Below are positions 8,961 to 10,848 of a DNA stretch of 64,000 bases, one piece after another. Numbering within the stretch: the first letter of the stretch is position 1; every line of letters starts with the position of its first letter. Made by a program: the position numbers and the translations under genes. Below the pieces are notes generated by a model that saw only the letters and a list, made by a program, of their open reading frames with translations, was not told the DNA's origin and did not search any database. Source of the DNA: Eledone cirrhosa (Eukaryota); the NCBI GenBank assembly GCA_964016885.1, contig OZ024741.1, forward strand, positions 117,118,001 to 117,182,000, in the 5' to 3' direction.

Positions 8961-9074
8961 ATATATATATATATATATATATATATATATATATATATAT
9001 ATATATATATATATGAAAGACGTAAAATAAGAAAATTTTAAAAATTAAAAATTAACTTACTTACTAAAATTTTC

Positions 9075-9156
9075 ACTCCAACTAATTAGTTTCTGTAATG
9101 GGATAAATATAGTTACACAATATAACTATCGAGAATTCATTACGTCATCAGGGAGT
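9075..9156 (-). ncRNA. Type I hammerhead with extended stem II
   Basis: Reverse complement: actcc-CUGAUGA-c-gtaatg...cattac-a-GAAA-ctaattag-UU-ggagt. Confidence 0.85.
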
Positions 9157-9608
9157 CTATTCTCAGCTAAGTTCCCAGGCAATGCACGGACACTAGGAAC
9201 CCATATAAAAATAATAATTCAGTGGATGTAATAAGCTAGCGAGGACTAAATTCCATAGCACTGAAAAAGTTCACTGCCTCTGGTCAATGGCAGATTCTAA
9301 AGAATCAATCACGTGACACTGAGGTTAGTCAGTTAGGGGTGGGGTGGTATTATGACAAGAGCCTACTACTACTACTACTATGAATTAGCAGTAGATTTGG
9401 CAAGTTTGTTCAACAAATAATTTGGAGATAAATATGGAGAATTAGTACATCTACCAACATATGCGTACAGATGTACTCTAATGCTAGCAAATATATAAGT
9501 TATGTCAAAGTACCTAGGTGGTTCTATGCAGGGGGATGCAGAACAATTATATGAAAGACGTAAAATAAGAAAATTTTAAAAATTAAAAATTAACTTACTA
9601 AAATTTTC

Positions 9609-9690
9609 ACTCCAACTAATTAGTTTCTGTAATGGGATAAATATAGTTACACAATATAACTATCGAGAATTCATTACGTCATCAGGGAGT
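9609..9690 (-). ncRNA. Type I hammerhead (second copy)
   Basis: Same sequence as 9075-9156. Confidence 0.85.
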
Positions 9691-10848
9691 CTATTCTCAG
9701 CTAAGTTCCCAGGCAATGCGCGGACACTAGGAACCCATATAAAAATAATAATTCAGTGGATGTAATAAGCTAGCGAGGACTAAATTCCATATAATTGTTC
9801 TGCATCCTCCTGCATAGAACCACCTAGGTATTTTGACATAACTTATATATTTGCTAGCATTAGTGTACATCTGTACGCATATGTTGGTAGATGTACTAAT
9901 TCTCTCTCTCTCTCTCTCTCTCTCTCTCTCTCTCTCTCTCTCTCTATATATATATATATATATATATATATATATATATATATATATATATATATATATA
10001 TATATATATATATATATATAGAGAGAGAGAGAGAGAGAGATGTTATTTAAATTAAGGTATGCACTCTTTTCAAGAAGTCGCTTTTCATGACACAACTTCC
10101 ACAATAATTCGTTCCAACAATAAAACTCCAATAATACAATTCCTAATATAGCCTGCATATGGTTGCTCAACCTGCTAGAAATAGCAGCCATATTTCCCCA
10201 ATTCCGCATCCTGCCGTTTTTTTATAAAATATATATTGGGTAATGTGGTTCTTATACACCGTGCATAAAAAGGAAAGGTTGTCAGAGTGTGCAAAATTTC
10301 TTATATTATGTCATTTTTCTCGTGACAAAAGTATGAGTAACACAGAACATATATGTGTGTTTCCATATTTATATATATATCCATCTGTAACACTTTAAAA
10401 TTTAGTCAAATATAAACACATACACACCATGCATTTCCTAATCAGTCATGTTATTACAATAAGTTCATTTTCCGATCACAAGATTCTGCCATTTTTCTCC
10501 TGTAAATAATTCTTCTTCTAAAGTTTTACATACATTTAATTCTATATGTCATTCGTACATATATATCGAACATTTATGTAATTATATCCTAGAATATGTT
10601 ATTTTTGTCTTTAATCACTTACACGTGTCAGTAATAAACACAAACTATAGGATTTCTCTTATGCAAATAATAAATTTATCAAAATACAACTTTCCCCAGT
10701 TTGTATGATTGTAATCTTAGTATATATAGCATATATATATATAGCATATATAGCATATAGTATATACTAGACTCCAAAAATTAAATACTTTCAACGTTAT
10801 AGTCCTCTTTATTGACGGCACGGGTCCACTAGTAACAAATATAAATAA

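Follow-up and report, generated by a model that had tools for sequence, protein, structure and literature searches.

A non-coding hammerhead element with a 534-nt unit in Eledone cirrhosa, probably derived from PLEs

In a window of 64 kb from the genome of Eledone cirrhosa (the whole stretch of DNA analysed, 64,000 nucleotides of contig OZ024741.1), a non-coding insertion at 9011-9904 carries two hammerhead ribozyme motifs between two long microsatellites. The question that this locus raises is what kind of element leaves such an arrangement, and from what kind of RNA it was copied. A preliminary description, made from the sequence, took it for a retrozyme. In our judgement it is probably a non-autonomous, non-coding PLE (Penelope-like element) derivative with a 534-nt unit, most like the Hydra clade and of the non-LTR retrozyme kind. 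The starting point is what can be seen directly, namely the anatomy of the locus, two fixed 3' ends common to a relative, a hammerhead fold with compensatory changes and the lack of a coding frame.

Anatomy of the locus and of its diverged relative

The features of the locus and of the relative are as follows.

8960..9014, no strand: (TA)27 left flank, whose last bases are a microhomology with the short 3' end of the element (site 1)
9011..9257, minus strand: repeat A, downstream and pseudo-LTR-like, terminating at site 1, which lies 66 nt 3' of the cut
9075..9156, minus strand: type I hammerhead, copy 1, core start 9151, predicted cut between 9080 and 9079
9080..9613, minus strand: monomer of 534 nt predicted from cleavage at both sites, GC content 34.6%
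9258..9436, minus strand: inner non-coding segment, one copy in the 64-kb window
9437..9548, minus strand: tail from site 1 to site 2, about 113 nt, with a 14-15 bp hairpin at its end
9549..9791, minus strand: repeat A', upstream and 5'-truncated, 98% identical to A
9609..9690, minus strand: type I hammerhead, copy 2, core start 9685, predicted cut between 9614 and 9613
9788..9904, plus strand: inverted arm, a copy of tail 9437-9553, from site 2 to site 1
9901..10020, no strand: (TC)22(TA)38 right flank, whose first four bases are common to the site-2 end
51730..52118, plus strand: diverged family member, 73-79% identity, same two ends

On the plus strand the order is therefore (TA)27, A, the inner part 9258-9548, A', the inverted arm and (TC)22(TA)38. 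One SNV (9186) and one 4-nt indel (9055-9058) distinguish repeat A from A', and because of this indel their left ends are 538 nt apart, while the hammerhead cores are separated by 534 nt. The preliminary description had reported two identical hammerheads 534 nt apart in direct repeats with microsatellite flanks, and all of this was confirmed: the cores lie at 9685 and 9151, the motifs show no difference over 105 nt, the repeats agree at 98% and the flanks are those listed above. The inverted terminal segment that it also mentioned does exist, but it copies the internal tail and not the left end of the element; it is the reverse complement of 9437-9553 with three SNVs. A' is joined to this arm by a 4-nt microhomology at 9788-9791, and the boundaries of the element are blurred by microhomologies of the same length. 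The direct part of the insertion amounts to 1.46 units with two complete hammerhead motifs. Further copies of the whole unit, searched for in the window only, did not turn up, either as an array of two full units or as any other full 534-nt unit.

The relative begins with an inverted tail plus 27 nt (51730-51867), continues with approximately 260 nt of repeat A and ends in (TA)14. It has a single repeat and a single hammerhead, and it reaches only to the equivalent of about 9274, so that the inner segment remains single-copy. In both members site 1 runs into (TA)n, at 66 nt past the cut in the element and 54 nt in the relative, site 2 lies about 113 nt beyond site 1 and runs into (TC)22(TA)n, and the site-2 arm is inverted relative to the site-1 arm. 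Between A and A', and between the arm and its source, there are four SNVs and one indel in all, and the relative backs the base of the other copy at three of the four SNVs; the differences look derived in single copies, and the models of the template are not separated by them. Near the end of the tail, at 9446-9495 on the minus strand, there is a G.U-rich hairpin of 14-15 bp that stops about 9 nt before site 2. The relative retains it, a single compensatory change having occurred in the tip, and it could possibly act as a binding signal for the RT.

The circularised unit is non-coding, with a GC content below 50%. Its longest stop-free frame has 65 aa and the longest from a Met 27 aa, and the homology searches run found no relatives, in agreement with the absence of coding capacity noted at the outset. 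The 65-aa sense frame had no Pfam match and no candidate among proteins of 35-114 aa, and the 61-aa antisense frame had no homologue among longer proteins. The RT plus GIY-YIG ORF that marks autonomous PLEs is missing between the repeats, and no RT or endonuclease remnant was detected within the unit (the best tblastn E value against 150 endonuclease-like proteins was 0.15, and that of a positive control 1e-37). Comparison with the coding remnants of the window gave no sequence link, the best blastn match (E 0.049) being to a non-coding family. A 33-nt pattern had 0 matches in bacterial and archaeal genomes, scans for sigma-70 promoters and tRNAs are uninformative for an animal genome, six short motifs of the family were absent from the supplement of PMC8557442, and literature searches, cephalopods included, found no description of this family.

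The surroundings are rich in microsatellites (133 tandem-repeat rows in the window), and they hold LINE-type ORFs and PLE remnants. The element is bracketed by inverted copies (8192-8282 and 9945-10084), 85-89% alike, of a short element that terminates in (TC)n(TA)n, which are probably separate insertions. To its left, a short insertion at 8548-8815 on the minus strand has a hammerhead core at 8709, inverted ends of about 60 nt and TA-rich repeats, and it seems to have the long end on both sides. Farther away there are L1/Tx1-like LINE copies with AP endonuclease and RT (16629-20090, 21336-22157 and 36097-38746), one of them with an open frame of 1153 aa; adjoining (GGTA)n arrays suggest a target preference. 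At 33062-35752 on the plus strand lies a non-LTR element with an open RT frame of 896 aa and (AAT)n flanks.

The hammerhead ribozymes and their predicted folding

A type I hammerhead descriptor gave 12 matches in the window, two of them at the 534-nt element. In dinucleotide shuffles of the unit, 2 of 3000 contained any match and 0 of 3000 an equally strong one. Rfam reported no hammerhead (0 matches at the gathering score in the window, and 0 of 10 weak matches to a hammerhead), probably owing to the 51-nt helix II region, and the ribozyme call is based on the descriptor and on covariation. Helix I has 5 bp and a GUU triplet precedes the predicted cut; helix II consists of 6 bp, an internal loop of 8x8 and a hairpin of 9 bp, and its base carries an additional C and A in both copies; and helix III is a 12-nt palindrome. 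The predicted cuts delimit exactly 534 nt, which agrees with the arithmetic of the earlier proposal that double cleavage would release a monomer of this length.

In the relative the hammerhead core (51990) is conserved, and helix I has one mismatch and is predicted not to form. Of 15 pairs of helix II compared between the two members, 8 are unchanged, 1 is changed on one side, 5 are changed on both sides and 1 is broken. When the same 12 substitutions were placed at random, five or more compensatory pairs appeared in 12 of 200,000 trials; the shuffle control of the covariation tool itself gave only 21 of 500, limited by a sample of two distinct sequences, from one of which the structure was drawn. 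Since the relative shares both ends, and since five pairs of its helix II have changed in a compensatory way, the ribozyme fold and the two ends are, on this sequence comparison, family traits, and the compensatory changes point to selection on RNA. A covariance model run over the 64-kb window scored only the three known copies (109-123 bits), and the next hit, at 19.8, was a TA run.

The predicted behaviour of a single ribozyme is poor. Helix III has a probability of 0.11-0.12 in the monomer or the circle, the hammerhead core is predicted to mispair with the palindrome with a probability of 0.58-0.79, and forcing the monomeric active fold on both ribozymes costs 7.8-10.9 kcal/mol. The predicted duplex of two helix III palindromes amounts to -9.0 kcal/mol. 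Because helix III is rare alone, the core mispairs and the palindromes pair at this energy, cleavage as a pair is, according to the folding model, the likely mode. Such cleavage has been described for PLE hammerheads with a long helix II, a helix I of 4-5 bp and a palindromic helix III (PMC4209133), and among predicted Xenopus dimers only one of nine was reported to cleave in vitro (10.64898/2026.07.22.740005). An extended helix I, which forms in an isolated 123-nt domain, has a probability of at most 0.01 in context, and no claim is made for it; RNAalifold suggested a blocking helix upstream, in which one pair is compensatory, and this was rejected, being populated at 0.05 or less. The circularised unit folds with a z score of -3.8 (60 shuffles), and 61% of its bases are paired, against 59% in shuffles.

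Priming, template and rival explanations

It has been described that PLE insertions are partial tandems which an inverted 5'-truncated copy adjoins and of which one end bears a tail (PMC8557442), that two pLTRs in direct orientation plus an inverted one can also surround non-PLE sequence moved in trans (PMC3846280), and that the RT has two internal start sites and nicks both strands of AT-rich DNA (PMC11167929). The element presents the same traits: a hammerhead-bearing pseudo-LTR partial tandem, an inverted 5'-truncated copy adjoining A' (an arm that is mostly tail) and a tail at one end from two start sites, of about 113 nt and not the 30-40 nt of the PLE tails in print (PMC8557442, PMC11167929). 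Filing it near the retrozymes, as was done initially, was reasonable, but this standard layout of PLE insertions was missed.

On this basis the following course of events may be proposed. A PLE RT/GIY-YIG protein acting in trans would nick a TA run on both of its strands. One of these nicks would prime cDNA synthesis at site 1, and 777 nt would be copied; the other would prime at site 2, farther 3', from which the tail would be copied back to site 1. The second cDNA would then be joined head-to-head to the first through the 4-nt microhomology. Its end at site 1 would agree with both primings having taken place on one RNA; in the relative its equivalent goes 27 nt beyond site 1. Against this, the arms of the other hammerhead families in the window run on past that point. 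The folding predictions, in which a single ribozyme folds poorly and cleavage is by pairs joined at the palindrome of helix III, would mean that a 534-nt monomer is freed from a transcript with two ribozymes and that a circle with one ribozyme stays fairly stable.

A cleaved linear monomer would yield only about 65 nt from site 1. The first cDNA spans two cleavage junctions and therefore excludes the plain cleaved monomer as template, so that a circle or a tandem that was not cleaved is left. The uncleaved tandem, an RNA at least about 890 nt long, has, in our estimate, an even chance of having been the template; a ligated 534-nt circle is a serious candidate with a somewhat less than even chance, and monomers joined by template jumps are improbable. 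The insertion had been regarded as some 1.5 turns of a circular template, and the 1.46 units found agree with that figure, but an uncleaved tandem transcript fits the sequence equally well, and sequence cannot tell the two apart. In vitro, unprocessed RNA is the main substrate of the Poseidon enzyme (PMC11167929), and this preference, together with the proximity of the truncation points, would by analogy favour a linear template. The first-strand stops of the two members (equivalents 9254-9257 and about 9274) are no more than about 19 nt apart, for which chance on a circle of 534 nt would account in some 7% of cases (n=2); this is a hint of a linear 5' end, and not a decisive one. The Anolis Poseidon enzyme requires RNA 3' of its start sites (PMC11167929), and because this locus has no tail after its last repeat, full-length progeny would need circularisation or a longer source, which speaks for the circle. 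The z score of the circular fold points the same way, though the share of paired bases barely exceeds that of shuffles.

Both site-2 ends continue into (TC)22, and a TC run is found at 7 of the 138 5' ends of TA runs in the window, these two included. Target choice by microhomology, inheritance from the source locus or stuttering of the RT may be the origin of the run. The template has a short UC repeat at site 2, and a fuller account would have an expressed circular 534-nt RNA copied from two fixed sites on one molecule by a PLE RT that stutters on this UC template and thereby produces (TC)22. We hold this account to be improbable, since it is based on two site-2 ends and microhomology targeting or inheritance explain the TC run as well. 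If it were true, the element itself would create compound (TC)n(TA)n microsatellites, it would provide a compact substrate of natural origin for the circle model proposed for how PLE pseudo-LTRs form, and the TC run would be the trace of reiterative synthesis by a telomerase-like PLE RT.

A challenge to a PLE derivative with a unit of its own is that the inner segment is present in one copy, and thus the 534-nt unit may be a one-off. A coding PLE could have suffered an internal deletion that removed the ORF between two pLTRs, in which case the spacing of 534 nt would be incidental, there would be no family of monomer RNAs and in the relative one would see no more than a usual copy of that coding parent, truncated at its 5' end. 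The relative indeed lacks the inner segment, PLE copies that carry inverted pLTRs and have lost internal parts are published (PMC3846280), and most genomic PLE hammerheads come from truncated copies (PMC4209133). Such a deletion is nevertheless unlikely in our view: the unit retains no trace of RT or endonuclease, its circular fold is more stable than those of shuffles (although local hairpins may explain this), and a five-unit array of 628-nt non-coding hammerhead units in the same window shows that such units amplify here. The claim of a second large retrozyme family stands in part: 534 nt is within the range of 51-972 bp of such units, but one copy of the inner segment does not show a propagating family.

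Duplication and fold-back inversion at the DNA level in unstable microsatellite DNA, or an artefact of the assembly, could draw on the abundance of long microsatellites and palindromes and on the microhomology at the junction. This explanation is largely refuted by a relative of 73-79% identity with the same two ends and a different inner junction; the four SNVs (at three of them the relative sides with the other copy) and the indel between copies, and compensatory changes that point to selection at the RNA level also speak against it, and we give it very little credence. An LTR retrozyme, or a TRIM-like mini LTR element whose two LTRs measure 245 nt, would account for two direct repeats with a hammerhead in each and a short non-coding spacer. 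However, the hammerhead here is of type I and those of LTR retrozymes are of type III, the upstream repeat stops at the inversion junction, the relative has a single repeat, and at the ends there are microsatellites and microhomology where a 4-bp target duplication would be expected (duplications being unreadable inside microsatellites), all of which makes this origin most improbable.

Hydra-clade links and likeness to known systems

With its (TA)n target and its Hydra-type hammerhead, the PLE derivative proposed here resembles the Hydra clade, and this is a resemblance only, given that the clade is defined on protein. As counted from the supplement of PMC8557442, (TA)n is preferred in 26 of 27 Hydra-clade families, extra bases flank helix II on both sides in 19 of the 25 families listed with hammerheads, and the cut follows a U in 10 of the 25. 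The window contains several coding remnants.

25085-27227: Hydra-like PLE remnant, an inverted head-to-head pair
55440-58231, minus strand: broken Hydra-like PLE with RT and endonuclease remnants (coding remnant at 56076-58120)
63526-64000: Hydra-like coding remnant

The endonuclease remnant at 56058-56771 has 3843 relatives in a full HMMER search and none in a word-index search. Among the best 150 of the 3843, the Hydra-type linker is present in 125, CxxC in 141 and CxH in 122; among long homologues DKT is found in 6 of 8 and RWK in only 1 of 8. Against Pfam GIY-YIG the remnant gave an E value of 0.036, below the cut-off, and ten of the 3843 relatives gave no Pfam match. The remnants are accordingly called Hydra-like by motifs only. 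The broken PLE at 55440-58231 is followed by a degenerate hammerhead at 55673 with two core changes; the helix II region of this motif spans 94 nt, and it lies 121 nt ahead of (TA)n. A minimal Penelope-type hammerhead core at 47540-47590 on the minus strand, missed by the descriptor, was recognised by eye.

Three short head-to-head insertions in (TA)n, at 47690-48030, 48360-48830 and 48815-49600, bear five small hammerheads of two related families. They have the same inverted layout of a short and a long end; those that have both ribozymes bear tails of 82 and 91 nt, and the arms of the insertions extend 50-166 nt past the end equivalent to site 1. This suggests that the tails of TA-targeting PLEs in this genome are 82-113 nt long rather than 30-40 nt. 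The distance from the cut to the end of the consensus, taken from the supplementary sequences for 24 of 25 Hydra-clade families (a family with its motif at the 5' end was left out, as was a duplicate row in inverted form), lies at 29-69 nt for 12 families, at 87-152 nt for 11 and at 354 nt for 1, which fits, indirectly, longer tails in the clade.

The metazoan non-LTR retrozymes are non-coding repeats with type I hammerheads, with circles of 170-400 nt, for which PLE machinery has been proposed (PMC7229834); their units span 51-972 bp and have homology to pLTRs (Li et al. 2026, 10.64898/2026.07.22.740005). The element shares with them its non-coding nature, its type I hammerheads in direct repeats, a GC content below 50%, a unit within that range, co-occurrence with PLEs and the idea of a PLE origin and a circular template (Cervera and de la Pena 2020, PMC7229834); copying beyond one unit of a circle had been proposed for PLEs in 2014 (PMC4209133). 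It differs from the retrozymes as described there in having 1.46 units and not an array, a unit longer than the circles seen in northern blots, an inverted tail arm and a 37-nt branched extension of helix II, and the present case is made from sequence. A clearer candidate for a non-LTR retrozyme is the 628-nt array, whose five units, 99.8% identical, lie between (TA)n runs at 52145-55312 on the minus strand, each with a type I hammerhead that has a U.U at the base of helix II and a long loop II. The circular fold of the 628-nt unit has a z score of -2.9, and it has no similarity to the 534-nt unit.

With the Hydra-clade PLEs (Craig et al. 2021, PMC8557442) the element has in common the (TA)n target, a hammerhead near the 3' end with bases flanking helix II, a short, near-palindromic helix III, a U at the cut, as is often the case there, and inverted 5' copies; unlike them it has no ORF, and its loop II has 37 nt, whereas that of the Hydra motifs listed there has 3-10 nt. 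The Anolis Poseidon (Frangieh et al. 2024, PMC11167929) and the Adineta Penelope (PMC3846280) offer the two fixed 3' ends past the hammerhead, the tail, two direct repeats and one inverted, AT-rich targets and trans-mobilised sequence between pLTRs. In comparison with what is reported of them, the tail is longer here, the inverted arm is almost only tail and (TC)22 follows site 2. Plant LTR retrozymes resemble the element in two direct-repeat hammerheads around a non-coding spacer and a monomer generated by double cleavage; they are described with type III hammerheads, a PBS, a PPT, 4-bp duplications and Gypsy partners, whereas the hammerhead of the element is of type I.

The element works like known PLE and retrozyme units, and it is best taken as a new family of a known kind and not as a new system. 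It adds a hammerhead-bearing PLE derivative to a class that is known from many animals and, being compact, with two defined ends and two identical ribozymes, it is a convenient object on which to test whether PLE tandems arise from circles or from uncleaved transcripts.
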